Origin: a virus
Taxonomy: Duplodnaviria; Caudoviricetes
DNA: 64,000 nt
Strand: one strand, 5' to 3'
IMG/VR virus record: IMGVR_UViG_3300033463_004353
Coordinates: 10,167 to 74,166 of that record
The notes below the pieces were generated by a model. The model was not told the origin of the DNA. It saw nothing but the letters and a program-made list of their open reading frames with translations, and searched no databases. The position numbers and the translations under genes are program-made. Every line of letters starts with the position of its first letter. The stretch's first letter is position 1. Below, piece by piece: positions 12,178 through 63,283 of this stretch.

Positions 12178-12783
12178 TTAAACTTCAAGTATATTCTTGT
12201 TAGAGTCATTGTAGTACATCAATGTCAATGCTGAAGTCTTCAATGAACGAATGTCATTTTCTATAAACTTCCTACGATCAAACTTGCTTGTTATCAGATG
12301 ATATCCGTTGACAGTCTCTAGTGTATACACTACATCAGCATTGCAATCACTTGTGAGATACTGCATAGTAGCATTGTAGTCTCCATCTTCTTGTGAGTCA
12401 AGATCTATCATCCATAGCTTGTCACGAGACTTAGACTTGTCAACAGCCGACTCAAACAACCCACGGGTCTTCTTGCTATTGCACTTGTAGTTGTCAACCA
12501 ATATGGTTATCAAGTCAAGCTGTATTGTCTTGTTATTCTTGCGGCGCAGGTCAATGTAAGCACGGGCATTCAACGCTATGCAAATCATCTTCATGAATGG
12601 GACAACCTTGTCAAACTCTTCTAGTGAGAATATGCAGAATGACCTTATCCTACGAGCACCATCATGAGAGCTTATAGTGTTATTGCCATCTTTCTTGCGT
12701 TGTATCAGAGAGATGAAGTAGAACTCATCTGGGTCTTCAAACTTCATGAAAGACCTTATCTTCTGAATGTTGTCTATTTCCAT
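12178..12783 (-). CDS. Conserved phage protein, possible AEP/primase-polymerase-like fold
   Basis: WMIDLD and TVNGYHLIT motifs resemble AEP motifs I and II. Confidence 0.4.
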   Translation of the reverse strand: MEIDNIQKIRSFMKFEDPDEFYFISLIQRKKDGNNTISSHDGARRIRSFCIFSLEEFDKVVPFMKMICIALNARAYIDLRRKNNKTIQLDLITILVDNYKCNSKKTRGLFESAVDKSKSRDKLWMIDLDSQEDGDYNATMQYLTSDCNADVVYTLETVNGYHLITSKFDRRKFIENDIRSLKTSALTLMYYNDSNKNILEV

Positions 12784-48500: not shown

Positions 48501-51500
48501 GTCTGCTAGTAGCAATAAGTGCTGCTATATTGGTTGTTGGAAGCATTTCAATGAAGATAACTGGACCTTTGGCACCATTAGAATTTGCAGGACTATTGTC
48601 AGGATTTGTCTTAGTAATGTCTAAGGCAATGGGATTGATGAGTAAAGCAATTGGCAAGAATCCAAAAGTCTTAGCTGATGCCGCTGTATTAGGAACTTTT
48701 GTGTTGATGACTTCTATATCATTGTCACTAGGTGCTATGTTTGTTGCTAAGTATGGTTTAGAGCCGGTCATCCAATATGGTGTGATACTACTAGCATTTG
48801 TTGGTAGCATGTCATTAGTTCTTGGATTGCTTGGAGCATTGTCTCCAGCATTGCTACCAGGTGAAGCTGCAGCTATAGGTCTTGGAGTAGCATTGTTGGC
48901 TTTGACAACGTCATTGACAATACTTGGCACATTGTTTGATGGCAAGCTAAACATCGAAGCTATAAACAATAACATATCAGCAATAGAAGAAATAGTATCT
49001 GTCGGTTTGCTATGGATGTTTGTCAAACTATCAATTGTTGGATTGCAAGCTTCACTTGGAATATATGGTGCATTAGCGATATCTGGTGCTTTATTAGCAT
49101 TAAGCACAACATTCAAGATAATAGATATCATGTTAAAAGAAACAGATGTTGAATCTAACTTTGATAAGCTAAATGACATAATTGGCTTATCTATGGCATG
49201 GTTCTTTGAAAAACTTATCCTTCTTTTACCATTTGCCATTCTTGGCGGTACATCTGCATTGCTGATAAGCACTACTTTGCTAGCTCTATCTGGATCATTG
49301 AAGATTGTTAGCTTGATTATGGAAGACTATAGTAGTGTAAAATCTGGTTTAGACAATTTGACAAACTTGATATCAGGCAAAGATTCTAACCTTTGGGCAT
49401 TATTTGGAAAGATAATAGCATTAGGAGCTGTTTCTATATTAGCTAGACCGGCAGTAAGGAGCTTCTCTTCAACAATGAAAATACTCTCAAATGCAATGGT
49501 GTCTATAGCTGAAGGTGAAGAGGCTATCAACAAGATGAACATATCTGACAATTCTGAAGAAGTTATCAAGAATATCAATGCATTCATAAGCATTGGAAAT
49601 GGAATAGACAAAGATGGATTAGATAAGCTAAAGAAGAATATTCGTCGTGTAAGATATCCAATTAGTGAGTTGTCAACAGTGATGATGCTAGTTGGAAGCA
49701 CCGTAAAAGACTTAGCTGACATGAAAGTAGCTATAGCATGGGACAAGAATGGAAATGCAATAAGATGGAGGCAGATAAGCCAGTCAGATTTTGATCTAGC
49801 GAAGGATAACATAAAAGACATATTGAACAATACATTTGAAGGCCTGAGCAAAGCATTAGAAGTGATAGATGATTCTAAGAGGGCAAGCTTGTTGAAGAAA
49901 GTCATCAACTCATCATTGAAGATTGGTGATATGATATCTAACATTGCATTAGGGATATCTAACATGGCTATCTTGTCAGTTGCCAATTCATTTGACCAAA
50001 CAACTGGAAAGCCAACATCATTCAAGAGATTGTCTGAAAGCCATTTCTCAGAAGCAAGACAGAACATAAAGCAAATATTGACAAATACATTTGATGCGTT
50101 GAAAGAAGTATACAATGACTTAGACAATTCTAATCTGCTAGACAGTGATTTCTTGGGCCTTGGCAGCACACCAATAGACAAGATAGTGAATGCATCAATG
50201 AATGTCTCAAACATGATTTCTGCAATTGTTGAATCATTGTTCTATATGGCATCTATGGAATTCCCTGTATATGAGAATGGCAAAATTGCTAAATACCAAA
50301 AGATTGGTGCTAAAGAGTTTGATGATGCTAATGCTAATATATTGAAAATAATAACTGACCAATTTGACACATTAGAAAGCCTAGCACAAAGGCCTGATTT
50401 GAAGAATGCTTTATCATGGGACACATGGTTCACTAGGAGTGATGCCGGAAAGATAATAAAGATGGCAATGGACATGTCTTCTATGATATCAAATTTGGCA
50501 ACTGGAATATCAATGATGGCTACTATGCAAATAGCTAACAGATGGGATCCAAAGACAGGAAAGCCGATTGGATATGTTAAAGTGACAGACGCTGAAATGA
50601 TAGAAGCATCCAACAATGTTGTCAAGATAATCAATGCATTGCTTGGTGGTGGTGAAAATGGAATAAAGTTCAATAAAATATCTTCTAACAAAGAAACAAT
50701 AAAGAAAGCTATAGAATCTGTCAACCCAATAAGTGAGATGATATCATCTTTAGCCGATGGGATTGTCAAGCTAGCATCCGGACAGGTACCTAATAAATGG
50801 AACAATGATGGAGTTGCTATTGGATATGACACTATCAACAGTGAAACATATGTAAAGATAGGTGAAGTTGTTGGAGACATCATAACAGCTGTTCCAAAAG
50901 CTTTGATTGAATTGGCAAATGATAAAAAAAATAAAAAATTTTTTGATGGTGGTAATAATCCACAGTTGAAAGACATAATAGAATCAGTAAGTGGAGTGAC
51001 TGAAATAGTTTCAAGCATTGCTGATAGTGTTGTAAAGTTTGCTCAAGGAAAGATTCCAGTATACAAAGATGGAAAGATAATAAGGTATGATGATATCAAC
51101 TTTGGTGATGAAAATGGAAAGGGTGGAATAGTAGAAAAACTATCTACAGTCATTAGCTCTATAATAACAGCAACAAGTGATGCTATAATCAACTGCTATA
51201 ATGCTAATGACAAGATGTTCTCAACAACAGGTGAAAACACCCCATTCTCAACAGCTGTAAATGGAATATCATCATCAATATCTATTGTGTCAAATCTAGT
51301 GTCTGCAGTAGTGTCATTAGGCAATGCACGACTTCCGAAGAGAATTGATCCAAAGACAGGCAATGTACTTGAGTATGAAGATTTAGGAAGCAGTGTAGAC
51401 AAAATACTAGAGAATTTGAAGAAGATTATTGATACAGGAGATGGCAAAAGCTTGTTGATGACTATTCCTACAATGATCAGCACGTTGTATGAAAAAATAA

Positions 51501-53101
51501 GTACTGGTAATTTAAATAAAAACATTGATGAAGTAAAAAATTTCATTAATCCGTCTATTGAAATGATTTCATCTGTTGCTAAGACAATTGTAGACATTTC
51601 TTCTTACAAGATACCATTAGGGTTTGACAAAGATGGCAAAGCAAATGGATATGAGGTATTTAACCAAGCTCATATAGGAAAAATGAAAGAAAATGCATTG
51701 AACATGATAAATGCATTATCAGGAATATTCAATGATGTAAATTTGAAAACAAATGTAGAAAATGCTTTGAAAAACTCTGATGATATCAACAAGAACATTA
51801 CAAGTATAATCAACAACTTTGAAATAATAGTAAGTGGATTGAAAGGATTGCATGAAGACTATTCTGGAACTATTGCTAAGATATTAGAATATAATAGATC
51901 TAAAGACAAGAGTCTTGCTAATGACATAGTCACGGTGATAAACTCATTTAGCAGTGCACTTAGTGATGAGTCAAAGATAAACATGATAAGCAAGAGCATA
52001 TCAGACAAGATAAGTGATGGGATTCTATCAACTAATGATGCTATAAGGAACATCATCTCAACATTGTCTAATGTTGCATCTATGTATTCTGAATATGACT
52101 TTGAGTCAATGACAAGTCGTTTGAATGCTCTCGACCCAGAAAAGATATTGCAAATGGTTTCTAAGATATCAACTATGATATCTAATGCGGACTCAACATT
52201 GCCGGCTTATGCAAGGATAGACAACATACAGAAATTTATAAACCAGTCGTATAAAGTAAAGAACTTAATAGAAAGCTATATAGATGTTGCAAACTCTATT
52301 GGGAACTTGAGAGATGCTATACAAAAGAACAACATAACATTAACAGATGTTGACATGAAGGTAGAAGATCTGCCAATGTCTGTAATGGGAGCGATAAAGT
52401 CTAAGATATCTAAGATAAGAGAAGACATAAACTCAATTGGATACTCTTCTAAAGGCTTAGGCATGATGGCATCTGACTTAGACAGGCTCTCTAGAGCTAT
52501 AAACAACACACCAGTTGACATCGATAAGAAGATAAATAGCTTGAAGCAATCATTAGACAACATATCTAAGATAGATGAGACAAACATAGCAGAATTCAAC
52601 AATCAAGTAGAAAGCATTGACAAGTATGTGAATACAGTGAATAGCATTGATATCAAAAAGGCTAACTCAATGGCAGAGATAGCTAGCCAAATGAGATCTT
52701 ATGTTACACAACTATCTAAGATGGACAGTGTTGCAGACATGCTATACAAGCTATCTAGAGTGCTAGAAGAAGTGAACTCAAGCTTGCATGAGTCTAAGGA
52801 CGTTGTAGAAGGAGCTAGAATGATACAAGACAAGAGAACTGAGAAGATGAATGAGTCTATCAAGACGATAAAGGAGATAATGGATAAAGAGCTCATTGTC
52901 AGGGTTTCATCTGACACAACAGAAAACACTGATGACTACAATAGCAATTCAATCTCAACTGCAACACCAGAATACAATAATTTAATTGGAACTGAATATG
53001 GTAAAGGTGCCACACCAAACAGCAATGACAACAATTCATTAAGCAAACAGAAAAACAAAGCAAATGAAGCAAAAGCAAGAGGAGGAAAATCTATAAAATG
53101 A
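45503..53101 (+). CDS. Tape measure protein
   Basis: 2532 aa, helical, central 64-aa hydrophobic repeats, followed by a tail-tube-like gene; TTATTTTTAA at 45443-45452. Confidence 0.75.
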   Translation: MDGKNKKQLVKKSVQTEKRELATPTGLGSFDKYLRGESTRDSLFITSAITGTSGDQVTNAISAMKSNKRSILGANQSLYAMISDIKESIAKMDIDNAIKGIKDAIGGMAKATNVSDKPKESINYSGILESINQEISGIRSSIDNSIIKVIEAINAERENINIIEKVDARISKDSLSEIKNAIENNFKETNGKIKVTVDGLNEKDIDALRKFSEMNMNALGVNAEWVSTLVEILSKTKPLDMSNSNKNLAQIAEILDNTAWIFSKPRVMLLNAIMAKGGSIENLVGKNGAMSGLFEKLKTIKLDEKMDFTNTIDALKDVSGLMDKVIKMMPYFILINKTSMAKTVLDSINGIKDIIDASDIWKDGSEYPKIKKSISDTNEAIDIIMSTVKSIQGYSIAKSFLDDGKINQIRELFEHNIKSLLREISSNKKDYTVEKNTTTQIKNSIEDIISIVDKISTQKGNDIDKVKKTLIGIASLFGISVDGKKMDINIMKNLFQSLGSLKDVSKQQSAKIDSIANQMESIKTILESINSISELKKIDKDKIISNISNYFETINEIYKEIDSKIDKIYEISSKVDGLKAANEKIKEGMESINDVAVKTQSSTKEIEDAQVNIEGMTKFIIASTIVLSVGALFVMLGGGKFIKASIEFAATLSLFEALVLLPVITTGPLLKKAMPLGNQMNGFILTCVGSMMIGALFVMLGGGKALKASLMFGIALMAFETLVIAPFILFGKFMPTMKANLEGFEYFMLACVGIMTIGALFMMLDNGTFVKNAINFGITLMIFEAMVLAPILLFSHISKDAKNSLDEMVDFMIASAAIMTIGALFMMIKNGAYAKYALEFGLTLMAFEALVLAPFLVMSLLAKDALKGAKLFSGLTIVTTAIMTIGALFMMIKNGAYAKYALEFGATLMTFEALVLAPFLVFGLFAKKAKANAIELLGLIAVSATILIVGSLTYEYLDGVESPLAFTILLSAFIAGMTHVFNWVSGNLSRTTINELKEFSLLVAISAAILVVGSISMKITGPLAPLEFAGLLSGFVLVMSKAMGLMSKAIGKNPKVLADAAVLGTFVLMTSISLSLGAMFVAKYGLEPVIQYGVILLAFVGSMSLVLGLLGALSPALLPGEAAAIGLGVALLALTTSLTILGTLFDGKLNIEAINNNISAIEEIVSVGLLWMFVKLSIVGLQASLGIYGALAISGALLALSTTFKIIDIMLKETDVESNFDKLNDIIGLSMAWFFEKLILLLPFAILGGTSALLISTTLLALSGSLKIVSLIMEDYSSVKSGLDNLTNLISGKDSNLWALFGKIIALGAVSILARPAVRSFSSTMKILSNAMVSIAEGEEAINKMNISDNSEEVIKNINAFISIGNGIDKDGLDKLKKNIRRVRYPISELSTVMMLVGSTVKDLADMKVAIAWDKNGNAIRWRQISQSDFDLAKDNIKDILNNTFEGLSKALEVIDDSKRASLLKKVINSSLKIGDMISNIALGISNMAILSVANSFDQTTGKPTSFKRLSESHFSEARQNIKQILTNTFDALKEVYNDLDNSNLLDSDFLGLGSTPIDKIVNASMNVSNMISAIVESLFYMASMEFPVYENGKIAKYQKIGAKEFDDANANILKIITDQFDTLESLAQRPDLKNALSWDTWFTRSDAGKIIKMAMDMSSMISNLATGISMMATMQIANRWDPKTGKPIGYVKVTDAEMIEASNNVVKIINALLGGGENGIKFNKISSNKETIKKAIESVNPISEMISSLADGIVKLASGQVPNKWNNDGVAIGYDTINSETYVKIGEVVGDIITAVPKALIELANDKKNKKFFDGGNNPQLKDIIESVSGVTEIVSSIADSVVKFAQGKIPVYKDGKIIRYDDINFGDENGKGGIVEKLSTVISSIITATSDAIINCYNANDKMFSTTGENTPFSTAVNGISSSISIVSNLVSAVVSLGNARLPKRIDPKTGNVLEYEDLGSSVDKILENLKKIIDTGDGKSLLMTIPTMISTLYEKISTGNLNKNIDEVKNFINPSIEMISSVAKTIVDISSYKIPLGFDKDGKANGYEVFNQAHIGKMKENALNMINALSGIFNDVNLKTNVENALKNSDDINKNITSIINNFEIIVSGLKGLHEDYSGTIAKILEYNRSKDKSLANDIVTVINSFSSALSDESKINMISKSISDKISDGILSTNDAIRNIISTLSNVASMYSEYDFESMTSRLNALDPEKILQMVSKISTMISNADSTLPAYARIDNIQKFINQSYKVKNLIESYIDVANSIGNLRDAIQKNNITLTDVDMKVEDLPMSVMGAIKSKISKIREDINSIGYSSKGLGMMASDLDRLSRAINNTPVDIDKKINSLKQSLDNISKIDETNIAEFNNQVESIDKYVNTVNSIDIKKANSMAEIASQMRSYVTQLSKMDSVADMLYKLSRVLEEVNSSLHESKDVVEGARMIQDKRTEKMNESIKTIKEIMDKELIVRVSSDTTENTDDYNSNSISTATPEYNNLIGTEYGKGATPNSNDNNSLSKQKNKANEAKARGGKSIK

Positions 53102-53919: not shown

Positions 53920-53945
53920 AGAGGTGGAGCTCAAGCTCCACCTCT
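53920..53945. terminator. Bidirectional terminator overlapping the U32 stop codon
   Basis: AGAGGTGGAGCT-CA-AGCTCCACCTCT. Confidence 0.8.
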
Positions 53946-55022
53946 TATTCTCTTGTTGTAGAAGTCTCTACAATATGTGCAAGTCTTTCCACACATCTGA
54001 TTCTCACACTCAAAGTTCTTAGTGAACCAATGATCTAAGAATCCATCTAGCTTGTCATTTGGTATGTTGTCAACCAACTCTTGCTCTGACTCTTCTTTCC
54101 CATTGTAGATTGTCTCAAGTGGCTTCCACAAGCCAATGAGGTTTCCTTCATGCTTGCCTTTCATGTAAGACTCAAGCACACTCACTAGATATGGTGTGCC
54201 ACCAGTACGACCGGACACCTTGAAGTAGTCTATCCCAATAGAGTTGTAATAGTGCAAGTCTTCCGGGCGTATCCATCTGCTACGTAGCCATTGCTCTTGA
54301 TTGCCATTCCTGCTTGACATGCAATATTGCATTGGATAGTTGTTATACAGCATTGACTCTTCTTTAGTCTTGCATGTCGCATGACAAAGGTAGCAAGAGT
54401 CACGGTATATGCAATGTGTAGCATAGTCTGAGCTAGCATTGTAGCAGAACTCATTTGCAAGCAACTCAAGAATCAATCCATTCTCATTGCAATAGTTTGC
54501 AGCATTGACCAAGAAGTCTTTGCTTCTGTTCTTCAATATGCTGTTGCAGAACTTGTTCACCCCAAGAGTCTCATGCAAGTATCTCATCTGAGTTGGTGTG
54601 TCAATGTGGAGTATGCAGCTTGCCTCAAGCTCAATGTCACTGACTTCTCTTATGAACATTGCTAGCATTGGGTTTGCAAATGTTATCCTGTACACACCAA
54701 TGCCCTCTAGCCACTTCACATAGTCTTGCACATGATTCTTGTTAGCTACAAGATTTGGCTTAGCCATGAATGGTTGTATAGAGTTAAGCACAACATTGAA
54801 CAATATGCCATGGTCAAGGCTCAGCTTGACATACTTCTCAAAGTCTTTGTCACTCATGTCTGGAAGCCTCCAATCAGGCCTTGCTGTCATAGGTGCTGCA
54901 GAGCTAGGGCTGCCAAAGAACTCTCTTACTACAGACTTGCCATCATACTTTTCATTCAACTCAGACACTCTGTCAATCAATTTCCAGTCAAAATTACAAC
55001 CTACTTTGAATTGGTTTATCAT
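53931..55022 (-). CDS. Peptidase-U32-family Fe-S protein (UbiU/TrhP/RlhA-like putative hydroxylase)
   Basis: LLANEFC...HCIYRDSCY Cys cluster; WIRPEDL...GIDYFKVSGRT (U32 D-x-(L/F)K-x-x-GR); C-terminal Cx4Cx3Cx2C. Confidence 0.75.
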   Translation of the reverse strand: MINQFKVGCNFDWKLIDRVSELNEKYDGKSVVREFFGSPSSAAPMTARPDWRLPDMSDKDFEKYVKLSLDHGILFNVVLNSIQPFMAKPNLVANKNHVQDYVKWLEGIGVYRITFANPMLAMFIREVSDIELEASCILHIDTPTQMRYLHETLGVNKFCNSILKNRSKDFLVNAANYCNENGLILELLANEFCYNASSDYATHCIYRDSCYLCHATCKTKEESMLYNNYPMQYCMSSRNGNQEQWLRSRWIRPEDLHYYNSIGIDYFKVSGRTGGTPYLVSVLESYMKGKHEGNLIGLWKPLETIYNGKEESEQELVDNIPNDKLDGFLDHWFTKNFECENQMCGKTCTYCRDFYNKRIRGGA

Positions 55023-55045
55023 ATCTTATAGATGTATTTTTTTAA

Positions 55046-55684
55046 TTAAACTAATCTAGCCATCTCATAGTATGTGAAAATTATCTCACTAAGTGCTCCA
55101 ATGCCTCCATTTGTGGTTGATGTGTAGTTTGCATATTCTCTCACTTGCTTAGGTGCATTGTTTGTTGTGAATGCATAGTCTGCTCTAGACATTGCAGGGA
55201 TGTCAGAGAATGAGTCACCAATGAACACAATGTCAACATCTATCTTGTTGAAGTAGCTCTCATCTCTGATTTGCATTACCAGCATCTCACGCTCTTTCCA
55301 GTTCATCTTAGACTTAGCAATGTTGTTGCTCTCAGAGACCGAGTCAATGAGCTTGTCAATGCGTGCAGATGTTATTGGAAACCCTTCTTTGTCATCTGTG
55401 ACAAATATGATTTGGTCTTTGCAAACATCAACAGCAAACTGTATTGCTTCTTTGTCATATGACCCATAGCTCTTTGCATACTTGCCATCTTTGTCAAAGT
55501 AGCTCCTGCCATCTGTCATCACACCATCACAATCTACTATGAATATAGTCTTCTTGTGCCTAGTTTCTAGCTTGTTGTCATCATAGAACTTCTTGAACCA
55601 AGTAGTGTTAGTGTCAAGCTCCTTCTTCTCATCTCTCCAATTGTCATTTCTCATCTCTTTCTTCAATGATACTATTTTGCTCAT
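55046..55684 (-). CDS. KdsC-like HAD sugar-phosphate phosphatase (start may be 55654)
   Basis: VDCDGVMTDG, FIGDSFSDIPAM, GGIGALSE. Confidence 0.85.
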   Translation of the reverse strand: MSKIVSLKKEMRNDNWRDEKKELDTNTTWFKKFYDDNKLETRHKKTIFIVDCDGVMTDGRSYFDKDGKYAKSYGSYDKEAIQFAVDVCKDQIIFVTDDKEGFPITSARIDKLIDSVSESNNIAKSKMNWKEREMLVMQIRDESYFNKIDVDIVFIGDSFSDIPAMSRADYAFTTNNAPKQVREYANYTSTTNGGIGALSEIIFTYYEMARLV

Positions 55685-56699
55685 TCACGCTCTCTTCATG
55701 TATGGCTCCCCAGATAGCCTCAACAAGTGTGTCTGGTATCTTCTTCATGTCTTTCAATGATTGCACAAGCTGTATGAACCTCTCAGGTTGGAAAACTGGC
55801 ATGTTGCTCTCTTTCTTCAATTCACCAATCTTATTTGTCACTTCAAACCTTGACTTCACAAGCTCAAGTATTTGCCTGTCAATGCTGTCAACATCATCTC
55901 TGTATTTCTTCAGCATCACTTCATTTGTGTTCTGCTCCATCACTAACACTCTGTGCAGCATCTCATTGAGGTCACTTGGCTTCAATTGCTGTGAAGCATC
56001 TGTCCATGCCATGTCTGGGTTGCAATGGCTCTCAATGATGAATCCATCATATCCATACATGCATGCTTTCTGGCATATCTCTTCAACGTACTCACGCTTG
56101 CCAGCAATGTGTGATGGGTCACAAAGCATTGACACATCTCTGTACTTGAGCTTCATCTGCAAAGCATATTGCCATAGTGGGTTGTTGCGATAGTCAGTGT
56201 CTTTGTAAGCTTTGAATCCACGATGTATGAATGCAACATTGTTGATGCCCATAGCTAAGAGGCGAAGGTAAGCACCTTCCCACAAGTCAATGTCAACACA
56301 TGATGGGTTCTTCACCATCACCATTGTTGTGTTGTCAATCTTTGCTATTGCCTCTGCAATCTCTTGGACAGCAAATGGATCTGATGTTGTACGTGCGCCA
56401 ATCCATATGGCATCCATCTTGTATTGCAATGCAAGCTTCACTTGCTCTTCATTGGCTACTTCACAGCACATCTTGACACCTGAATGCTCTGTCTTGTACT
56501 CAAGCATCCACTTGAGTGCTATCTCACCAAGCCCTTCAAAGCCACCAGGCTTAGTCCTTGGCTTCCACACACCCCCACGTATGAATGTGATGCCATTCTC
56601 AACCAATTGGTCACATGTCTCAAACAACTGCTCTCTTGACTCAACTGAGCATGGTCCAGCTATTATAGTCTTATTTGTTTCCATATCATCAATCACCAA
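55644..56699 (-). CDS. Bifunctional DAHP synthase (type I-beta) / chorismate mutase, Bacteroidota type
   Basis: IAGPCSVES, GGVWKPRT, WIGART, VKNP, IHRGF, CDPSH, IESH; C-terminal AroQ-like YRDDVDSIDRQILELVKSRF...K...PVFQPER. Confidence 0.93.
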   Translation of the reverse strand: MVIDDMETNKTIIAGPCSVESREQLFETCDQLVENGITFIRGGVWKPRTKPGGFEGLGEIALKWMLEYKTEHSGVKMCCEVANEEQVKLALQYKMDAIWIGARTTSDPFAVQEIAEAIAKIDNTTMVMVKNPSCVDIDLWEGAYLRLLAMGINNVAFIHRGFKAYKDTDYRNNPLWQYALQMKLKYRDVSMLCDPSHIAGKREYVEEICQKACMYGYDGFIIESHCNPDMAWTDASQQLKPSDLNEMLHRVLVMEQNTNEVMLKKYRDDVDSIDRQILELVKSRFEVTNKIGELKKESNMPVFQPERFIQLVQSLKDMKKIPDTLVEAIWGAIHEESVNEQNSIIEERDEK

Positions 56700-57267
56700 T
56701 ATATGTCCTTGTTATGAAGTCAACTAGCAAGCTCAGCCTAGTTGTGCTTGCCTTGAGGAACACAAGCTTGTCAGCATTGCATTCGGCATTAATGTTGCTG
56801 CAATAGAGGTGGTTGAGCTCATTGAACTCATCTTCACTATATTGTGCAACATACTCATTGCCTTCAACCATCTTTATCCTATCTATGTACTCTTTGTAGC
56901 TCTCAAACAAGATGATGTAGTTATGTACTTCCATGCCAACTGGGAGCTTGCTTAGCTTAGGCTTTACTGTATGCTTTCTGTTGAACAATGTTGAATACAC
57001 TTCATCTGATATCAAGAATCTAGCCATTATGATTGTGTCATTTTGCATTGCTAGCTTCTCTATCTCTTCTATCTGTGCATCTATGAACTTGTCAAGCCAT
57101 GACAAGAAGTCATCTTGCTCTTTGTCATACTTTGGCATGCCTTCAAGGTTGTTCCTCATCACTACTGTCTTTGGCATCAAGCTAGATATCTTCTCTAAGT
57201 CATCTAGCAATGAGTCTTTGCCAGCACGATCAAACCCTTCTACAACTATGAGTCTCTTCTTCTGCAT
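56689..57267 (-). CDS. Deoxynucleoside monophosphate (thymidylate-type) kinase
   Basis: LIVVEGFDRAGKD P-loop; MARFLISDEVY resembles the TMPK DR motif region. Confidence 0.7.
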   Translation of the reverse strand: MQKKRLIVVEGFDRAGKDSLLDDLEKISSLMPKTVVMRNNLEGMPKYDKEQDDFLSWLDKFIDAQIEEIEKLAMQNDTIIMARFLISDEVYSTLFNRKHTVKPKLSKLPVGMEVHNYIILFESYKEYIDRIKMVEGNEYVAQYSEDEFNELNHLYCSNINAECNADKLVFLKASTTRLSLLVDFITRTYIGD

Positions 57268-57273
57268 ACATAA

Positions 57274-57282
57274 TTAAAATAG
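57274..57282 (-). promoter_or_regulatory. Representative copy of putative early/middle motif CTATTTTAA
   Basis: Same or near-identical motif upstream of genes starting at 7879, 14513, 25035, 27665, 29877, 44293, 57267, 60674. Confidence 0.5.
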
Positions 57283-58818
57283 TCATTCTTCAAGTGCACC
57301 TCTCAGCACCTTCATCCCATACTCATATGCTATGTTAGCTTTCATGACATCTTGAGATATGTATCCAGCTAATGCTATCCATATCACTCCAAGCAAGACT
57401 CTGTAGACTTTGTTGTCTAGGTAGTCTATGCCATAGAACCACTTGAGCCTCTTTGGTGAGTCAATCCCATACACTTGTGGATTCAAGTTGAATCCATCAT
57501 ACCCATCAAGGCAATATAGCAGCTTAGCATATTCATAAGGTTGCCAGCCATATAGAGTTGTCTCACCAAAGTATCCGCGAGGATCTATGAACTTCACTTT
57601 GCCATTCTTTGGATTCACCATCACATTGCTGCCATTCAAGTCACCATGGCATATGCAGTACTTCACTTCTTGGCCTTTCTCTATGCTTGACAGATAAGTG
57701 TATGCTTCTTCTAGCAATGCTCTCATCTCTTCTCTGTCATAGTTGACAAGCATGTTCTTGATGTTGTCACAACGCTTCAGCACTTTTGTGACAACCTCAT
57801 ATCTCAAGTCACACTCAAACACATTCCTTGGCACCATCTTGTAATGCTTAGCAAGCTTGTTCAAGCTACGGCGAATACGCTTGTACACACTCATCACATC
57901 TGCATCATCATGTGTCTTGATGTAGTGCTCTAGTGATGTCCAGTTCTCTAAGAACTGCATCTTGAATGCATTCTTGTCTCCATTCATCCCATCATATATC
58001 TCTGGCACTATCTTGTCATAGTCTTCAACCTCACTCTTCAATGACTCATACCACTGATACTCTTTCTGTATGATTGGGTAGTACTCTTTGACAATAGCAC
58101 GCTTCACAAGCACAGGATACTTGTTGTCTTTGCATTCAATCTCTATGCTGTTGAAGAACCTACACTTCATAGAAGACTCTATCTGGTTTGCATTCTTTAT
58201 GATGCTCACATACTCTTCTTTAGTACGATACTCAACTATGTAGTGGTTTATGTCTTCATGCTTCTCAAACTCACTTGCATGCAATGATATGGCATCTATC
58301 AAGTCATAGTTAGGCATCTCATCACACTTGATAGTAATTATGTCTCTCAAGTGCTTTATGAAGTATATTCCTGGGATATTGCCAACTTCTTGATTGCCAT
58401 CATGATCTCTTGTAGGGCGTATCATGCCACTATCATCAAACACATAACGGTAAGATCCACTCTGGCAGACAATAGTGTTCTTAGTGAACTCCATCCTGTC
58501 ACGAATCTCCAAGTCTGACCACACAAAAAGCACATCATCTTGTGGTATCTTGTCAATGACACTCATTATTGTGTTGTAAGACCCATTAGAGTTGCTTGTC
58601 TCAACTATGTGTATGTCTAAGTTGTTCACTCGTACATAGTCGGCAACCATCTTGGCATACTTTGAATTTATGATTATAGTTATTGTGTCTTTGTTGAATA
58701 CTTTTGACATCTCTTCCAACAGTGAGTTGTAGAATCTAGTTGGAAGCAAGACTTTAGGGAATATTGAGAGGTCACGATATCTTGTGCCATTTCCTCCTGC
58801 TACAATGACTACATTCAT
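57283..58818 (-). CDS. Sugar nucleotidyltransferase fused to an APH/choline-kinase-like domain
   Basis: N-terminal VAGGNGTRY...PKVLLP; C-terminal HGDLNGSN...FIDPRG...YEYAKL. Confidence 0.82.
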   Translation of the reverse strand: MNVVIVAGGNGTRYRDLSIFPKVLLPTRFYNSLLEEMSKVFNKDTITIIINSKYAKMVADYVRVNNLDIHIVETSNSNGSYNTIMSVIDKIPQDDVLFVWSDLEIRDRMEFTKNTIVCQSGSYRYVFDDSGMIRPTRDHDGNQEVGNIPGIYFIKHLRDIITIKCDEMPNYDLIDAISLHASEFEKHEDINHYIVEYRTKEEYVSIIKNANQIESSMKCRFFNSIEIECKDNKYPVLVKRAIVKEYYPIIQKEYQWYESLKSEVEDYDKIVPEIYDGMNGDKNAFKMQFLENWTSLEHYIKTHDDADVMSVYKRIRRSLNKLAKHYKMVPRNVFECDLRYEVVTKVLKRCDNIKNMLVNYDREEMRALLEEAYTYLSSIEKGQEVKYCICHGDLNGSNVMVNPKNGKVKFIDPRGYFGETTLYGWQPYEYAKLLYCLDGYDGFNLNPQVYGIDSPKRLKWFYGIDYLDNKVYRVLLGVIWIALAGYISQDVMKANIAYEYGMKVLRGALEE

Positions 58819-58871
58819 TAGATAAACTTCTTATAAATTGTGTTTAGATTGTTTCCTATTTCATGTCATAT

Positions 58872-58918
58872 CACACATATCTAGACAAGTATCTGGACAT
58901 CTTGTCTAGATATGTGTG
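58872..58918. repeat. Perfect 18-bp inverted repeat with 11-nt loop
   Basis: CACACATATCTAGACAAG (58872-89) / CTTGTCTAGATATGTGTG (58901-18). Confidence 0.9.
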
Positions 58919-58942
58919 TGTTATGAATTCTATCTCTTACAG

Positions 58943-59608
58943 TCACTTGCCAAAGTTGTCCAGATACTTGTCCATGCCAAGCAGCTTGCCATTGTTGCCA
59001 CCAAGATGGTTGTACTTGTAGTTGTCTACCAAGTCTTGGCATTGCTCAAACACATCTACTCCAAGGATGTCAAGCACAAGCTGTGTTGTGTGGATTGATA
59101 GTGATGGTATCAAGTCACGTGAGTCTATCTCAACCTTTGCCAATGTCTTGCTCACACCACGTGGAGTCAATACATAGTCATATCTCTCTTTCAGTGACTC
59201 ATATTCTCCATCACATGTCAAGAAAAGCCCAACTGTTGTCAAGTTCTCTATCTTCTTTGATGCTTTCAAGTCAGATATCACATCTACAAGCTTCTCCATC
59301 TCTTTTGTCTTGCCAGACTTTGATATGAAGACTATCACTTTGTCTTCATCTTTGTCCATCAGTGTGCCAAGATCACCATGCAATGCATGTGTGCAATCTA
59401 GTGATGATGCTTTCAAGCCCATTGAGATGAATGTCTTCACTTCTTTCTCACATATGTACCAGTTCTTGCCAACACCAGAGAAGATGAACCTCATTTTGTA
59501 AGGGTTAGCTAAGCACCGTTGCAAGAGGCTTGCATAGTCTTGTGAGTCAACTATAGCTTCTATTGTGCTGCTAGCTATAGCCATCTTTGTCCTAATGGTC
59601 TCATCCAT
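58943..59608 (-). CDS. SIS-domain sugar-phosphate isomerase (KdsD/arabinose-5-phosphate isomerase-like, no CBS domains)
   Basis: FSGVGKN, ALHGDLG, FISKSGKT, IPSLS, NHLGG. Confidence 0.85.
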   Translation of the reverse strand: MDETIRTKMAIASSTIEAIVDSQDYASLLQRCLANPYKMRFIFSGVGKNWYICEKEVKTFISMGLKASSLDCTHALHGDLGTLMDKDEDKVIVFISKSGKTKEMEKLVDVISDLKASKKIENLTTVGLFLTCDGEYESLKERYDYVLTPRGVSKTLAKVEIDSRDLIPSLSIHTTQLVLDILGVDVFEQCQDLVDNYKYNHLGGNNGKLLGMDKYLDNFGK

Positions 59609-59609
59609 G

Positions 59610-60674
59610 TTATTGTATGTTGTCTAAATATTTCTCTAATTCTCCAATTGTCTCAACCATCTTCTCATGGGGTATCTCGCATGTTGCGGCATGGTTTATG
59701 AACTTGGTGTCTTCTAAGTATGGCACCATGCAATCAACATAGTCAAGGATTGTGTAATATGTATCGCGATCTTTGCTCACTTGTATGAAATGCTCATTCA
59801 CATAGTCTGAGCACCCAATGCTACTAGCAATCTTGCCTAAGTCACAATTGTTTGGGTTTGTGTACAATACTGCAAGACTCTTGCCATTCTTGTGGTGTGT
59901 AATGACATCTAGTATCTCCTTGAACTTGTATCCCATGTCTGTCAGACGAAATGGTAAGAACAGCACATGATGCCCTTTGCTTGTGAACTCCTGCAATGAT
60001 GACATGACTGATTCATCCAGCTTGTAAGAGAAGAATGGCAAGCTTCTGTCTATCAGTGTGCTTATCATGATTGTGTTGCACATTGCCACATTAGTGGTTG
60101 ACTTGAGCATATCTATGTACTTCTCTTGGTCTTCAGATGCTATGATTGCATTCTTCACTCTTGAGAATATGTACTTGTCTATTGACTTGTGTGGCTCTAA
60201 GAAGTCTCTTGTCTTCTCATCTGTTGCACATACTGGGCACCAGTATATGACATCTAGCCAGCTCAGCTTGTCTAGTGCCATCAACACAACAAACTGCGCT
60301 TCAGCTATGATAGTGTCATATGAGCTGCCATCTACTAAATCAATGATCTTTGATGCAAACCCAATATCCCGTTGCACTTTTGATGACTCAACTATCAAGC
60401 TAGTCTCTTTCAAGCATATGCTGGTGTTGTTCATCTCACCGATCTTTGCAACTGCTTGTGAGAACCACTCATAGTCATTGCCAGATAGTGGACAAGCTAT
60501 GTCTAAGTGCTTGAAAGACTTGATGTGTGAGAATGTTGACAACATACGATTGACATTTCCATCTGCTTTGAAGTTCAATGCTTTTGTCTTGTAGTCAAAG
60601 CACGAGTATATTGGTATGTACAGCACTCGCTTGCCATGTATCAAGTTAGACAGCTTTATATATTCATCTTTCAT
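59610..60674 (-). CDS. Putative glycosyltransferase (possible DNA sugar transferase, assigned mainly by context)
   Basis: First gene of the operon; IPIYS...ADGNVNR, FLPFRLTDMGY, PYLED blocks; alternating beta/alpha pattern compatible with GT-B; no unambiguous signature. Confidence 0.45.
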   Translation of the reverse strand: MKDEYIKLSNLIHGKRVLYIPIYSCFDYKTKALNFKADGNVNRMLSTFSHIKSFKHLDIACPLSGNDYEWFSQAVAKIGEMNNTSICLKETSLIVESSKVQRDIGFASKIIDLVDGSSYDTIIAEAQFVVLMALDKLSWLDVIYWCPVCATDEKTRDFLEPHKSIDKYIFSRVKNAIIASEDQEKYIDMLKSTTNVAMCNTIMISTLIDRSLPFFSYKLDESVMSSLQEFTSKGHHVLFLPFRLTDMGYKFKEILDVITHHKNGKSLAVLYTNPNNCDLGKIASSIGCSDYVNEHFIQVSKDRDTYYTILDYVDCMVPYLEDTKFINHAATCEIPHEKMVETIGELEKYLDNIQ

Positions 60675-60884: not shown

Positions 60885-62522
60885 ATGCCAAAGATATATC
60901 TGTCAGACATTGACACCATAAAGAAGTTCATGCTAGAAGATGCTGATGAACAGCAAGAGAGCATAGAAGCCGCAAGTGATGTTGACTCACAGCCTATAGA
61001 AGACCCATTGCTCAACAGTCCAAGCAAGTCACAGCCACAGCCACCATCTGAAGACAACACTATAGAAGACAAGCCATACTTCTTCAAGACAATACTCTTC
61101 TTCACCAATGAGAGAGACTCTTCAAAGAACAAGACACTGAAGAACTTAGAAGAAGCAATAGAAGGCAAGAACATCGACATAGTTGTGCTTGTTTCAGATG
61201 AAGTCCACTACAAGGCTATGGATGACAAGATTATGATAAATGACAACAAGACAAAGTATGTCATAGACAAGCAATCTAACATTGACACAATAGCTATTGT
61301 GAGGCTTGGTGCACAAGATAGTGAAGAGTGTATGGAGTGCATAAAAGAGATACAAGACTGGGGACTGTTTGTGCTGAATCCAATACAGCCAGCTAAGAGA
61401 GCTTCAAACAAGTATCAGTCATGTGTCTTGATGGAGAGATATGGCATTCCACAGCCTAAGTTCACATTGTTGACAAAGAATGATGTGAAAGATGGAATGG
61501 ACTCACTCACCAAGAAGCTCAAGCTGATCTACAAAGATGCTGACAAGAATGAAGATGCTGAGAACTATGAGTATGTTGTGAAGAAGCTTGATGGCCATGG
61601 TGGCACAGGTGTGTTCATGGTCAATGGCAAGACTATACTTGCCATACTGCAAGCTATGTTCTCAATTGATGAAGACTTGGAGTTGCTATTGCAGAAGAAG
61701 CAAGATGCAGATGGTGGAGACATTCGTGTGCATGTGCTTACCATGAGGACTAGCCAAAAGATACTTGCATCAATGAAGCGAAAGAAGATTGGCAAAGACT
61801 TCCGTAGCAATATATCACTTGGTGCAACCGCAGAGCCTGTAGAACTGACAAGAGAGCAAGAAGAGATCGCACTAAAAGTTGCCAAGATATCAGGCATGCC
61901 ATGGTGTGCTGTTGATATAATGCCATTAGTCAAAGGCAGTGATGATGACTTCAAAGAAGTAGGATACAATGTTGTCTTAGAGTTCAATGCTAGCCCCGGA
62001 ACTGATGGCATATCAGAAGTGATAAAGGAGAACTTCTGTAAGATATTGCTAGACAATATAAATGACATAAATGAGCTCACACTAGCACCAAAGTCAATAG
62101 GATATCTTGAAGACATCACTATAACAATGGAAGATGAGGAGACAATCACATTTGAGGCAAAGCTTGACACTGGCAATGGTGCAAAGGCATCTACTATTGG
62201 GTGTGATGAAGTGAAGACGATTGATGACAATGTGATTGCAAAGATTGGTGACAAGCAATACTACTTCAAGAAGAGTGGCAAGTCAAAGGCAATAGTTGGC
62301 CAAGTGACTGAAGAGAGAGTTGTTGTTGAAGTGCCTTGCATACAGATAGGGACAAGGAAGCTTCTCAATGCAGAGTTTGCATTAGTAGACAACCGTAACA
62401 AGAAGCAGAAAGTTTTGTTGAATCGTGACATCATGTCAAAGCTTGCTTACATGATAAACCCATCTAAGTCACACTTGATTGAAGATGAGTTCAGTGAGTT
62501 GAAGCAAAATGCAAAGAAATGA
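60885..62522 (+). CDS. RimK-like ATP-grasp ligase fused to a C-terminal RimB-like (retropepsin-type) protease
   Basis: ASNKY, YVVKKLDGHGGTGV, DIRVHV, FRSNISLG, AVDI, LEFNASPG; C-terminal AKLDTG...EERVVV...EFALVD...VLLNRD. Confidence 0.85.
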   Translation: MPKIYLSDIDTIKKFMLEDADEQQESIEAASDVDSQPIEDPLLNSPSKSQPQPPSEDNTIEDKPYFFKTILFFTNERDSSKNKTLKNLEEAIEGKNIDIVVLVSDEVHYKAMDDKIMINDNKTKYVIDKQSNIDTIAIVRLGAQDSEECMECIKEIQDWGLFVLNPIQPAKRASNKYQSCVLMERYGIPQPKFTLLTKNDVKDGMDSLTKKLKLIYKDADKNEDAENYEYVVKKLDGHGGTGVFMVNGKTILAILQAMFSIDEDLELLLQKKQDADGGDIRVHVLTMRTSQKILASMKRKKIGKDFRSNISLGATAEPVELTREQEEIALKVAKISGMPWCAVDIMPLVKGSDDDFKEVGYNVVLEFNASPGTDGISEVIKENFCKILLDNINDINELTLAPKSIGYLEDITITMEDEETITFEAKLDTGNGAKASTIGCDEVKTIDDNVIAKIGDKQYYFKKSGKSKAIVGQVTEERVVVEVPCIQIGTRKLLNAEFALVDNRNKKQKVLLNRDIMSKLAYMINPSKSHLIEDEFSELKQNAKK

Positions 62523-63283
62523 GATATATCATAGAATACATATCAGAGAAGCTGAAAGTAGACAAGCATGTATCTGTTGCATATTCTTGCAAGCCTAAGA
62601 CAAAAGATGAGCTGATCAATATATTGTCAGATAGGCTAGAGAAAGACAAAGATGCTGACTTGAATGACATTGATGTCTCATTAGTTAAAGACATGTCATA
62701 CTTGTTTGATAGGCTAGAACCGCATGATATAGACATATCACAATGGGATGTGTCTAATGTAAAGAATATGGGAGGGATGTTCTTTGATTGTAGAGGGTTC
62801 AATGCAGACTTGTCTAGTTGGGATGTCTCTAATGTTGTTAAGATGTATTCTACGTTTGAGAATTGCAAGAATTTCAACTCAGACCTCTCACAATGGGATG
62901 TGTCTAATGCAGAGGATATGAATAGCATGTTCTACAATTGCAGCAAGTTCAACTCAGACCTCTCACAATGGGATGTGTCAAATGCTATAGATATGCATTT
63001 TATGTTCTACAATTGCAATAGCTTCAACTCAGACCTCTCACATTGGGATGTGTCTAGTATCAAGGACATGTCATTCATGTTTGCTAATTGTGATAGCTTC
63101 AACTCTGACCTCTCACATTGGGATGTGTCTAATGCTATAGATATGCGGTTGATGTTCTACAATTGCAAGAGATTCAACTCTGACTTGTCTAGTTGGGATA
63201 TGTCTAAAGTCAAGTATATGGACTCTATGTTTTATAGTTGCTCATCACTAAAAACAAAGCCTGCTTGGTATAAGAGCATATGA
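62519..63283 (+). CDS. DUF285/BspA-type 25-aa repeat protein
   Basis: Seven FNSDLSxWDVSNxxxMxxMFxxC-type units. Confidence 0.9.
   Translation: MRYIIEYISEKLKVDKHVSVAYSCKPKTKDELINILSDRLEKDKDADLNDIDVSLVKDMSYLFDRLEPHDIDISQWDVSNVKNMGGMFFDCRGFNADLSSWDVSNVVKMYSTFENCKNFNSDLSQWDVSNAEDMNSMFYNCSKFNSDLSQWDVSNAIDMHFMFYNCNSFNSDLSHWDVSSIKDMSFMFANCDSFNSDLSHWDVSNAIDMRLMFYNCKRFNSDLSSWDMSKVKYMDSMFYSCSSLKTKPAWYKSI

Follow-up and report, generated by a model that had tools for sequence, protein, structure and literature searches.

An operon of seven genes in the window (the whole stretch of 64,000 nucleotides analysed here, from the IMG/VR record IMGVR_UViG_3300033463_004353) is interpreted, with moderate confidence, as a DNA hypermodification pathway of the RB69/HY126 type in which an iron-sulfur (Fe-S) protein of the U32 family replaces the ThyA-type hydroxylase and a DAHP synthase-chorismate mutase (DAHPS-CM) supplies prephenate. 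If true, this would be an undescribed oxygen-free route to a modified DNA base. The base is most likely a glycosylated, arabinofuranosylated 5-hydroxycytosine; what is inferred here is the reaction chemistry, whether the substrate is a nucleotide or a polymer and cytosine or uracil, and which sugar is attached, as analyses of virion DNA are lacking for these phages.

Operon layout and kinship with RB69-type clusters

The seven co-directional ORFs are packed on the minus strand at positions 53931-60674, with neighbouring genes overlapping by up to 41 nt or separated by up to 124 nt; the ORF list reproduces exactly the limits given in the initial annotation, and all of its domain calls hold in Pfam, PHROG and profile searches. 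The start codons of the genes at 55644 and 55046 are uncertain by a few codons. A palindromic hairpin with 11 perfect base pairs (53920-53945) overlaps the stop codon of the U32 gene and, because it sits between convergent genes, is a probable bidirectional terminator; the shared terminator suggested earlier is thus plausible, with the reservation that the T-tract is weak.

The DNA of RB69 contains (poly)arabinosyl-5-hydroxycytosine, and Acinetobacter phage DLP3 makes tri-arabinosyl-5-hydroxycytosine (PMC13326640). The ara-5hoC cluster of the Straboviridae comprises gp45-gp55 plus gp3 in RB69, the Afh enzymes in HY126 and gp76-83 in DLP3 (Thomas 2018, PMC6024577; Lee et al. 2026, PMC13326640), and the first enzyme of the published systems is an O2- and flavin-dependent 5hodCMP synthase of the ThyA type (PMC13326640). 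Judged by the PHROGs observed to be shared with RB69, five of the seven genes are homologues of this cluster, i.e. the GT-B glycosyltransferase (phrog_3891; gp46:47), the thymidylate-kinase-like (TMK-like) kinase (phrog_761; gp45), the arabinose-5-phosphate (A5P) isomerase (phrog_5670; gp55), the nucleotidyltransferase/kinase (NT/kinase; phrog_4098; gp52:53) and the U32 protein (phrog_5757; gp50). Further accounts of the cluster are said to be those of He et al. 2026 and Mahler et al. 2025. The RB69 cluster does hold A5P isomerase, NT/kinase and U32 together, as the initial annotation had suggested; in addition, both clusters have a HAD phosphatase after the NT/kinase and follow the same logic, a hydroxylated pyrimidine plus an NDP-pentose. 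However, the present operon is without the cluster's defining first enzyme, the ThyA-type O2/flavin 5hodCMP synthase; a gp56-type dCTPase was not found for this phage; the phosphatase is KdsC-like rather than gp51-like; a DAHPS-CM has been added; and the host virus is not a T4-like coliphage but a large phage known from metagenomic data, with relatives that have an anaerobic ribonucleotide reductase (RNR) only. The overall plan, in which a pyrimidine is modified, phosphorylated by a dedicated kinase, incorporated and then glycosylated, is also that of T4 glucosyl-hydroxymethylcytosine (gp42, gp1 kinase, gp56 dCTPase and alpha/beta-GT), but the substituent here would be OH instead of CH2OH, the first enzyme family, the sugar and the sugar pathway differ, and a dCTPase was not detected.

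These homologies bear on whether DNA is the target at all. It is very unlikely that the U32 protein and chorismate mutase (CM) hydroxylate host or phage RNA, with the DAHPS-CM being an auxiliary gene for aromatic amino acids and the sugars decorating virion proteins or the host envelope. Although the characterized nucleic-acid substrates of U32 proteins are RNAs only, and there is no DNA chemistry for this phage, the cluster shares synteny and homology with one for which DNA modification is proven, its nucleotide kinase is co-conserved and occurs fused to the glycosyltransferase or isomerase, and the U32 gene is embedded and translationally coupled in the same operon. The co-conservation implied by the earlier reading is indeed seen, the operon genes being kept together in every related phage locus found.

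Predicted sugar synthesis and transfer

The gene-by-gene pathway logic proposed previously holds by homology to the RB69-type enzymes, save that the sugar steps had been ordered as isomerase, phosphatase, kinase and nucleotidyltransferase, whereas the published order is isomerase, kinase, phosphatase and nucleotidyltransferase. The SIS-domain isomerase (58943-59608, minus strand) matches KpsF/GutQ (1.3e-13) and phrog_5670 (3.8e-27), is 29.5% identical to RB69 gp55 and has both the GVGKN and SKSGKT motifs; by homology, it would convert ribulose-5-P to arabinose-5-P. The AfhE-like sugar-1-kinase/sugar-1-phosphate nucleotidyltransferase (57283-58818, minus strand) combines NTP_transferase and APH/choline-kinase-like domains (phrog_4098, 8.7e-72), shares 32% identity with RB69 gp52 and contains the motifs GGNGTR and HGDLNGSN; the function of its AfhE homologue has been published (PMC13326640). 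It would phosphorylate C1 of arabinose-5-P and, once the HAD phosphatase had stripped the 5-phosphate, its nucleotidyltransferase domain would make an NDP-pentose, probably UDP-arabinofuranose. The phosphatase (55046-55684, minus strand) matches KdsC and KDN-9-P phosphatase models at about 1e-13, has the motif DCDGVMTDG and shows no homology to RB69 gp51. It adjoins the NT/kinase in every relative, even where DAHPS is lacking, and is predicted to be a functional analogue of AfhF/RB69 gp51, the arabinose-1,5-bisphosphate 5-phosphatase.

The protein encoded at 59610-60674 (minus strand) has no Pfam match; it matches phrog_3891 (1.3e-8), which also holds RB69 gp46 and gp47 (arabinosyltransferase 1), and its AF2 model (pLDDT 82.9) matches only GT-B glycosyltransferases (MshA 3c4q, 6kih), so the glycosyltransferase fold that had been assumed for it is supported. 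GT-B matches of the 3c4q/6kih type have also been published for RB69 gp46:47 (PMC13326640). The gene is kept in every related locus, and its product is predicted to attach the first sugar at the 5-OH of the modified DNA base.

The U32 protein as candidate hydroxylase

A PF00303 search found no ThyA-type gene in the record of the window (G000) or in 12 other records with close U32 homologues, those at least 90% complete being G002 (98%), G005 (100%, DTR), G007 (90%), G009 (100%), G010 (100%, DTR) and G012 (97%). The search was sensitive enough, since it detected the gp48-like gene of the RB69-like record G013. Because G000 is a fragment, estimated to be 26% complete (implying about 285 kb), the absence observed rests, for this particular phage, on the relatives. 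The only ThyA in a close relative, that of L113, has retained D169 and N177, which marks it as an ordinary thymidylate synthase, whereas D169N and N177D are found in RB69 gp48 and in the gene of L027.

The U32 protein (53931-55022, minus strand) is where the strongest constraint in the operon falls, being by far its best-conserved product (85% identity to L001, with 38-46% for the neighbours). It is 49% identical to RB69 gp50 (phrog_5757, 1e-123), and its AF2 model (pLDDT 84.8) has the U32 protein Mk0906 (5d88) as top PDB match. The Peptidase_U32 match (PF01136; 28.3 bits versus a cut-off of 22.4) spans only about 60 residues, and NCBIfam gave no match. Eleven Cys are invariant (C9, C159, C193, C204, C210, C213, C234, C339, C344, C348 and C351), among them those of an extra C-terminal CX4CX3CX2C. 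Among U32 proteins, RlhA (rRNA ho5C), TrhP (tRNA ho5U) and UbiU/V require prephenate and Fe-S clusters, with prephenate donating the oxygen atom, and those characterized on nucleic acids work on polymers (rRNA, tRNA), not mononucleotides (PMC5727448, PMC10990095). Like RlhA (23S rRNA ho5C2501), TrhP (tRNA ho5U34) and UbiU-UbiV, the phage protein is a TIM-barrel with the Peptidase_U32 Pfam, carries many invariant Cys after the barrel strand with the E-F motif, and has K-V-S-G-R aligned to the family's K-I-E-G-R; it is genetically linked to prephenate synthesis, as those enzymes are genetically dependent on it, and the reaction predicted for it, cytosine C5 hydroxylation, is that of RlhA. However, it represents a separate phage-only subfamily, very distant from cellular U32 proteins (hhalign probability 21%, E 0.001) and mapping only partially onto the canonical four-Cys site; it consists of one 363-aa chain, with neither DUF3656 nor a partner subunit; and its predicted substrate is a deoxynucleotide or DNA, on which activity has not been shown.

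On comparative evidence alone, there is a somewhat better than even chance that this protein is a prephenate-dependent, O2-independent C5 hydroxylase fed by DAHPS-CM. It would hydroxylate cytosine at C5 without O2, most likely as dCMP and with prephenate as oxygen donor, as in RlhA, and so would stand in for the O2/flavin-dependent ThyA-type 5hodCMP synthase. This central inference of the initial annotation gains support, without biochemistry, from four independent comparative tests, each of which might have gone the other way: no ThyA in complete relatives, the U32-CM linkage, the presence of anaerobic RNR only, and the absence of U32 from phages of aerobic hosts. It is unlikely, if still conceivable, that the hydroxylated base is glycosylated but that U32 is a redox/accessory enzyme or a sugar modifier, the hydroxylase being an unrecognized phage or host enzyme. 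The literature labels RB69 gp50 non-committally as a 'sugar or heterocycle reductase' (NAR 2026, PMC13326640), the phage protein diverges strongly from characterized U32 hydroxylases, and the direct hydroxylase activity of no U32 protein has been reconstituted in vitro. Nevertheless, AfhE and AfhF alone reconstitute UDP-arabinofuranose (PMC13326640), and Acinetobacter phages without U32 fully modify their DNA, which argues that the sugar branch can do without U32; in Acinetobacter DLP1, for example, neither the cluster nor the whole record has a U32 gene. Moreover, no other hydroxylase candidate is conserved in the related clusters, and such a role would leave unexplained both the absence of U32 from aerobe-host phages and its recurrent linkage to CM or a complete shikimate pathway.

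That linkage is observed directly. CM_2 occurs in 10 of 14 records and, in nine of those 10, lies within about 1 kb of U32. In the U32 gene clusters, CM is found alone, fused to DAHPS or with a complete shikimate pathway, in at least five distinct arrangements: DAHPS-CM, HAD, U32; U32 and a stand-alone CM with an 8-nt overlap; U32, DAHPS-CM; separate DAHPS and CM genes heading the operon; and DAHPS-CM, U32, then AroB, AroK, AroQ-AroA, AroC and AroE, which together cover every step to prephenate and were found in three samples. In G004, the DAHPS-CM is 136 kb away from U32, and three near-complete relatives (G002, G009 and G012) have U32 without CM. Within the window, the fusion of type I-beta DAHP synthase and C-terminal AroQ CM (55644-56699, minus strand) matches DAHP_synth_1 (PF00793, 2.5e-36) and CM_2 (PF01817, 7.9e-18), with the GPCSVES, KPRT, IGAR, DPSH and ESH motifs and the CM Arg/Lys/Ser/Gln positions conserved. 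It has the domain order of the Bacteroidota DAH7PS-CM (Porphyromonas, Prevotella), with metal and PEP motifs intact, and its closest cellular homologues are almost all Bacteroidota (Bacteroidales, Flavobacteriales, Cytophagales; 41-47% identity over the full length). Unlike these, it is phage-encoded, inside a DNA-modification operon whose relatives swap in a stand-alone CM or extend to the whole shikimate pathway. Its predicted role is to supply prephenate, raising flux both into the shikimate pathway and out of it so that prephenate, used once per modified base, would not be exhausted. To our knowledge of the accessible literature, no paper was found that assigns a phage U32 a prephenate-dependent, O2-independent hydroxylase role; the sugar, glycosyltransferase and kinase part is already published, as is the identity of the known hydroxylase as a ThyA homologue, and the initial annotation had recognized neither.

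An aldolase in this setting also recalls Kdo biosynthesis (KdsD-KdsA-KdsC-KdsB), of whose four enzyme types three have look-alikes in the operon: the SIS isomerase, the aldolase of the DAHPS/KDO8PS superfamily and the KdsC-like phosphatase. The best PDB match of the aldolase, the P. furiosus DAH7PS (1zco), is known to accept pentose phosphates. Yet it is very unlikely that the isomerase, aldolase and phosphatase make a 3-deoxy-ulosonic acid (Kdo or DAH) that is then nucleotide-activated and transferred. The aldolase scores 163 bits against DAHPS models and 53 bits against KDO8PS and has a CM domain; the DAHPS domain is dispensable in relatives (5 of 14 records), a stand-alone CM or nothing taking its place while the isomerase, NT/kinase, HAD phosphatase and glycosyltransferase stay; and the nucleotidyltransferase is AfhE-like, with no KdsB-type CMP-Kdo synthetase.

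Oxygen ecology, target base and nucleotide supply

NrdD was found in eight of the 14 relative records and the small subunit of class I RNR in none. Among isolates with the sugar genes, U32 goes with facultatively anaerobic hosts: it accompanies the AfhE-like gene in RB69 and Shewanella phage Thanatos-2, and it is missing in each of three phages of aerobic hosts that were checked (Acinetobacter DLP1, Sphingomonas PAU and Pseudomonas PspYZU05). More broadly, 222 records from Enterobacterales-type hosts carry U32; the NT/kinase is in 57 Acinetobacter phage records, and Acinetobacter is outside the ten commonest U32 organism names. Of the Escherichia phage records, 177 have the NT/kinase and 137 have U32, so that about 40 apparently carry the former without the latter. 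The host is probably an anaerobic member of the Bacteroidota; the earlier label 'Bacteroidota jumbo phage' has only indirect support, from the implied genome size and the affinity of the DAHPS-CM.

The TMK-like kinase (56689-57267, minus strand) matches PF02223 (1.1e-4) and phrog_761 (3e-12; RB69 gp45, 1.6e-45), has the P-loop EGFDRAGKDS and is fused to the glycosyltransferase in L002, L017, L023 and L026 and to the isomerase in L113. It is predicted to phosphorylate 5-hydroxy-dNMP. Its family leaves room for a uracil target, in which U32, like TrhP, would make 5-hydroxy-dUMP, the kinase would phosphorylate this product and glycosyl-5-hydroxyuracil would take the place of thymine. TrhP is a U32 enzyme making ho5U, all 13 IMG/VR records lack a thymidylate synthase of their own, and a dCMP deaminase and dUTPase adjoin the L111 cluster. 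This is nonetheless quite unlikely: the glycosyltransferase and kinase share PHROGs with those of RB69, whose modified base has been shown to be cytosine, the canonical thymidylate synthase beside the L113 cluster means that thymine is still made there, and RlhA demonstrates U32 chemistry on cytosine. No dCTPase was found, either as an RB69 gp56 homologue or as a MazG domain, and full replacement of cytosine via the nucleotide pool is therefore unsupported. Outside the operon, the window encodes an NDP kinase-ferritin fusion (41966-42967, minus strand; PF00334, 8e-19; PF00210, 1e-11) that could act after the TMK-like kinase and convert the modified dNDP to the dNTP in the final phosphorylation step; any connection with the operon is tentative.

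The operon and its predicted sugar branch

The initial annotation claimed seven co-directional genes on the minus strand (window 53931-60674); their coordinates match the ORF listing exactly, and each of its domain calls was confirmed with Pfam, NCBIfam and PHROGs. The genes encode a glycosyltransferase (GT; 59610-60674), a SIS/KpsF isomerase (58943-59608), an NTP_transferase domain joined to an APH/choline-kinase-like domain (NT/kinase; 57283-58818), a thymidylate-kinase-like (TMK-like) P-loop kinase (56689-57267), a DAHP synthase-chorismate mutase with DAHP_synth_1 and CM_2 domains (DAHPS-CM; 55644-56699), a KdsC-like HAD phosphatase (55046-55684) and a Peptidase_U32-family protein (U32; 53931-55022). 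The catalytic motifs of the operon proteins are intact, and adjacent genes overlap by up to 41 nt or lie up to 124 nt apart. A perfect 11-bp hairpin (53920-53945) overlaps the last stop codon of the operon and faces a convergent gene, and a sigma-70 promoter scan gave background levels, with 26 sites found and 23 expected. The record holding the window is a 74 kb IMG/VR virus record estimated to be 26% complete, and phage tail, baseplate and helicase genes are present in the window.

In the DNA of phage RB69 and of Acinetobacter phage DLP3, 5-hydroxycytosine bearing one to three arabinoses takes the place of cytosine (Lee et al. 2026, PMC13326640). There, the 5-OH is put on dCMP by the thymidylate-synthase homologue RB69 gp48, a flavin-binding enzyme that takes its oxygen from O2, while UDP-arabinofuranose is formed by an A5P isomerase, the bifunctional AfhE and the phosphatase AfhF, after which GT-B enzymes act on the DNA (PMC13326640). 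The kit formed by the sugar, GT and kinase genes is already published, and its parts can be recognized in the window. The isomerase matches phrog_5670 (3.8e-27) and KpsF/GutQ (1e-13), is 29.5% identical to RB69 gp55 and qualifies as an A5P isomerase; the NT/kinase, which matches phrog_4098 (8.7e-72) and shares 32% identity with gp52, has both domains with their catalytic motifs and qualifies as AfhE-type; and the TMK-like kinase falls in the same PHROG as the nucleotide kinase RB69 gp45. The HAD phosphatase holds the position equivalent to AfhF/gp51 but is KdsC-like, and neither a common PHROG nor a BLAST match links it to RB69 gp51 (phrog_1238); it is a non-orthologous analogue, by position only. 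The first gene, for which Pfam and NCBIfam gave no match, matches phrog_3891, the PHROG common to RB69 gp46:47, and its AF2 model (pLDDT 82.9) matches GT-B glycosyltransferases only, the PDB neighbours being those already published for gp46:47. Lack of a GT fold in this protein would have refuted the annotated pathway, and that objection fails. Judged by sequence match and model, the protein meets the requirements for a predicted GT-B arabinosyltransferase of the gp46:47 family, its sugar and acceptor specificity being inferred. By these assignments, the window has the genes of the published kit except gp48, and has DAHPS-CM in addition. The U32 protein encoded inside the RB69 cluster, gp50, is listed merely as a 'sugar or heterocycle reductase' and is undiscussed (PMC13326640).

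Relatives of the operon were found in 14 IMG/VR records and several ENA, NCBI and Logan contigs, with U32 proteins 55-85% identical to that of the window. Since the GT, NT/kinase, KdsC-like HAD and TMK-like kinase genes adjoin U32 in all relatives, the genes are co-conserved, as the annotated pathway demanded. U32 is 85% identical in the related locus L001, where its operon neighbours are 38-46% identical, and 62% identical in L002, where they are 30-50% identical. Several relatives carry gene fusions, namely GT with TMK-like kinase in L002 (L002:2594-4411), L017, L023 and L026, GT with SIS isomerase in L111 (L111:3347-5146), and SIS isomerase with TMK-like kinase in L113 (L113:4368-5645). These fusions tie the parts, including the kinase and the sugar enzymes, into one pathway, and they leave the exact substrate of the kinase open. 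RimK-like ATP-grasp genes lie divergent from the cluster in the window (60885-62522, plus strand) and in two further loci (L013:4920-7737; L014:6313-9110); this neighbourhood is conserved in distant relatives, in which one copy is fused to NLPC_P60.

The missing hydroxylase and the U32 protein

A six-frame search with PF00303 gave no match in the record holding the window or in 12 other records with a close U32, six of which are 90-100% complete and two of which have terminal repeats, and RB69 gp48 as query gave no blastp or phmmer match in the operon and related loci. The PF00303 search was sensitive enough, because it detected the gp48-like gene of an RB69-like record (G013/L027) that served as positive control. 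One ENA relative, L113, does encode a ThyA; it retains D169 and N177, residues that mark it, on sequence grounds, as an ordinary thymidylate synthase, the D169N and N177D signature being found in RB69 gp48 and the L027 gene. In the absence of a ThyA-type enzyme, an acceptor-dependent GT and a kinase are thus present without a known route to the 5-OH.

The U32 protein is 49% identical to RB69 gp50. It qualifies as a U32 protein in domain and fold, with PF01136 scoring 28.3 bits against a cut-off of 22.4 bits, over residues 98-158 only, and an AF2 model (pLDDT 84.8) forming a TIM barrel whose top Foldseek PDB match is 5d88, the U32 protein Mk0906. An hhalign comparison with six Bacteroidota U32 proteins was co-linear over 204 columns and weak (E 0.001, probability 21%); it pairs the phage E-F, SCYL and KVSGR motifs with signature motifs of the U32 family and aligns C210, within SCYL, with the family motif G-x-C-x-L-S, without a one-to-one mapping of the four cysteine ligands of the family's 4Fe-4S site. 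Eleven cysteines are invariant across 13 U32 sequences and lie in a low-pLDDT loop (190-250) and in a C-terminal CX4CX3CX2C motif (residues 339-351). By analogy, the latter may bind a second Fe-S cluster, so that one protein could match what UbiU-UbiV is as a pair with two clusters; the motif also contains a radical-SAM-like CX3CX2C spacing. NCBIfam gave no match, the U32 profile returned chance matches only when searched against PDB sequences, and no longer or fused forms were found, the last being weak evidence. Phage U32 is a distinct, phage-only subfamily.

The U32 hydroxylases RlhA (which forms 5-hydroxycytidine in rRNA), TrhP and UbiU/V all need prephenate and Fe-S clusters, prephenate being the oxygen-atom donor (PMC5727448, PMC10990095), and in vitro reconstitution has been achieved for none of them (PMC10990095). 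The preferred reading, held with moderate confidence and in the absence of biochemical data, is that phage-type U32 is a single-subunit, prephenate-dependent and O2-independent cytosine C5-hydroxylase that acts on dCMP or directly on DNA, much as its relatives do on RNA. In the proposed pathway, the SIS isomerase would convert Ru5P to A5P, which the AfhE-like enzyme and the HAD phosphatase would take through arabinose-1,5-P2 and arabinose-1-P to NDP-arabinofuranose; U32 would hydroxylate C5 of cytosine with prephenate and without O2, DAHPS-CM boosting the supply of prephenate; the TMK-like kinase and an NDK-ferritin fusion would bring the modified nucleotide to the triphosphate; and the GT-B enzyme would glycosylate the base in DNA. 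The fusion, which joins an NDP kinase to a ferritin/rubrerythrin-like domain (PF00334 and PF00210; window 41966-42967, minus strand), may add the last phosphate to the modified nucleotide, and its iron-storage half is intriguing beside an Fe-S-dependent pathway. Neither RB69 gp56, the dCTPase, used as a single-sequence query, nor the MazG domain, searched as a single family, was matched in any of the 14 records. Because no dCTPase was found, and because the substrates of RlhA and TrhP are polymers, hydroxylation at the DNA level, after replication, stays possible. The base could also be uracil rather than cytosine. Arabinosyl-5-hydroxycytosine, the product expected if cytosine is the substrate, is inferred for the DNA of this phage from its genes alone, without virion-DNA data.

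Proposed prephenate supply, and oxygen

Prephenate dependence of phage U32 is inferred, and its support is only genomic: chorismate mutase (CM), or the whole shikimate pathway, adjoins U32 in five arrangements, a linkage that matches the established prephenate need of the U32 family. In the window and the related loci L001 and L016, the order is DAHPS-CM, HAD, U32; elsewhere, U32 is followed by an overlapping stand-alone CM of 107 aa, U32 is followed by DAHPS-CM, or DAHPS and CM stand as separate genes at the head of the operon. In the fifth arrangement, a phage-like contig of 25% G+C seen in three samples (L114:9068-19311; also L115, L116 and L112) has the order phage-type GT, DAHPS-CM, U32, and after these the genes for DHQ synthase, shikimate kinase, a DHQase II-EPSP synthase fusion, chorismate synthase and shikimate dehydrogenase. 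The set covers every step to prephenate, and a whole shikimate pathway as auxiliary genes is unusual for a virus. Of the 14 records, 10 have CM_2, which in nine of these ten is no more than ~1 kb from U32; DAHPS is present in only five. The constant partner of U32 is the prephenate-forming step and not DAHPS. Three near-complete relatives without CM speak against the linkage. The sole unclustered case found is a DAHPS-CM 136 kb from U32 in another record (IMGVR_UViG_3300045988_116618, G004:167130-168140).

Both domains of the window DAHPS-CM are present, its metal/PEP motifs and CM catalytic positions are intact, and it qualifies as a type I-beta enzyme. A reading in which the aldolase serves Kdo was set aside, since the protein scores 163 bits as type I-beta DAHPS (PDB match 1zco) and 53 bits as KDO8PS, and since the DAHPS domain is dispensable in relatives while CM stays with U32; nor did Pfam detect in the operon a CTP_transf_3-type enzyme, the kind expected for a KdsB-type CMP-Kdo synthetase. 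That same dispensability, with retention of CM, was the ground for setting aside a role as a generic aromatic amino-acid auxiliary gene. The cellular proteins closest to DAHPS-CM, which align with it from end to end, C-terminal CM included, at 41-47% identity, are almost all from Bacteroidota, and this sequence affinity is the only evidence, an indirect one, on the host; the window has no tRNA genes, so tRNAs give no host clue.

Eight of the 14 records encode the class III anaerobic RNR; none encodes the small subunit of the O2-dependent class I enzyme. Among cultured phages, an AfhE-like gene occurs in 371 records, 57 of them from Acinetobacter, and U32 in 222, whose ten commonest organisms all have Enterobacterales-type names; some coliphages with the sugar genes are without U32. 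In searches of whole records, U32 was present in RB69 and Shewanella phage Thanatos-2 and absent from Acinetobacter DLP1, Sphingomonas PAU and Pseudomonas PspYZU05. The pattern is that phages of aerobic hosts have the ThyA-type enzyme only, those of facultative hosts have both, and phages with anaerobic RNR only have U32 only. Since Acinetobacter phages complete the modification without U32, U32 lies outside the sugar branch. In Thanatos-2, the product of TH2_068 (MT457553.1:60323-61402) carries the annotation 'hypothetical protein' and matches the phage U32 profile at E 3e-153, which makes it a clear U32 homologue; the gene sits inside the pentosyl-cytosine cluster of that phage. The window also encodes a formate/nitrite transporter family protein (12774-13397, minus strand; PF01226, 2.6e-16), which fits a fermentative or anaerobic host.

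Implications and other features of the window

Neither the ThyA-less version with U32 and prephenate nor a link between phage U32 and DNA hydroxylation was found in the searchable literature, which did not cover He et al. (2026, Nat Chem Biol) and Mahler et al. (2025). The phage-type U32 family takes in RB69 gp50 along with homologues from 222 isolate genomes and from hundreds of metagenomic clusters. If true, the proposal would describe a route to a hypermodified DNA base without oxygen and a U32 hydroxylase directed at DNA, each the first of its kind, and would add DNA to the RNA and quinones for which prephenate is already an oxygen donor. It would likewise supply a function for a gene left unexplained in published RB69-type clusters, and would explain 5-hydroxycytosine in RB69-type and strictly anaerobic phages where the O2/flavin enzyme cannot work. 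Phages would then carry CM, DAHPS or the entire shikimate pathway solely to provide the co-substrate that donates the oxygen, which would account concretely for shikimate-pathway genes in phages; by a rough estimate, ~1e5 prephenate molecules would be needed per genome copy, for ~285 kb at 40% G+C. Work with a phage U32, a small and soluble single chain that would act on a nucleotide, could open the unreconstituted U32 mechanism to direct tests. The proposal also predicts hypermodified DNA, resistant to restriction and CRISPR, in large phages of anaerobic communities, which matters for the sequencing and cloning of such phages and for studies of defence systems.

Three further features of the window were recorded. 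A 650-aa protein (10155-12107, minus strand) matches phrog_22485, a PHROG of unknown function, at 7e-235; a 2532-aa ORF without a Pfam family (45503-53101, plus strand) lies in a region of lower G+C (0.34-0.37); and the stretch 62519-63969 (plus strand) encodes a tandem pair of DUF285 ('Mycoplasma protein of unknown function') repeat proteins, both matching at ~1e-70.
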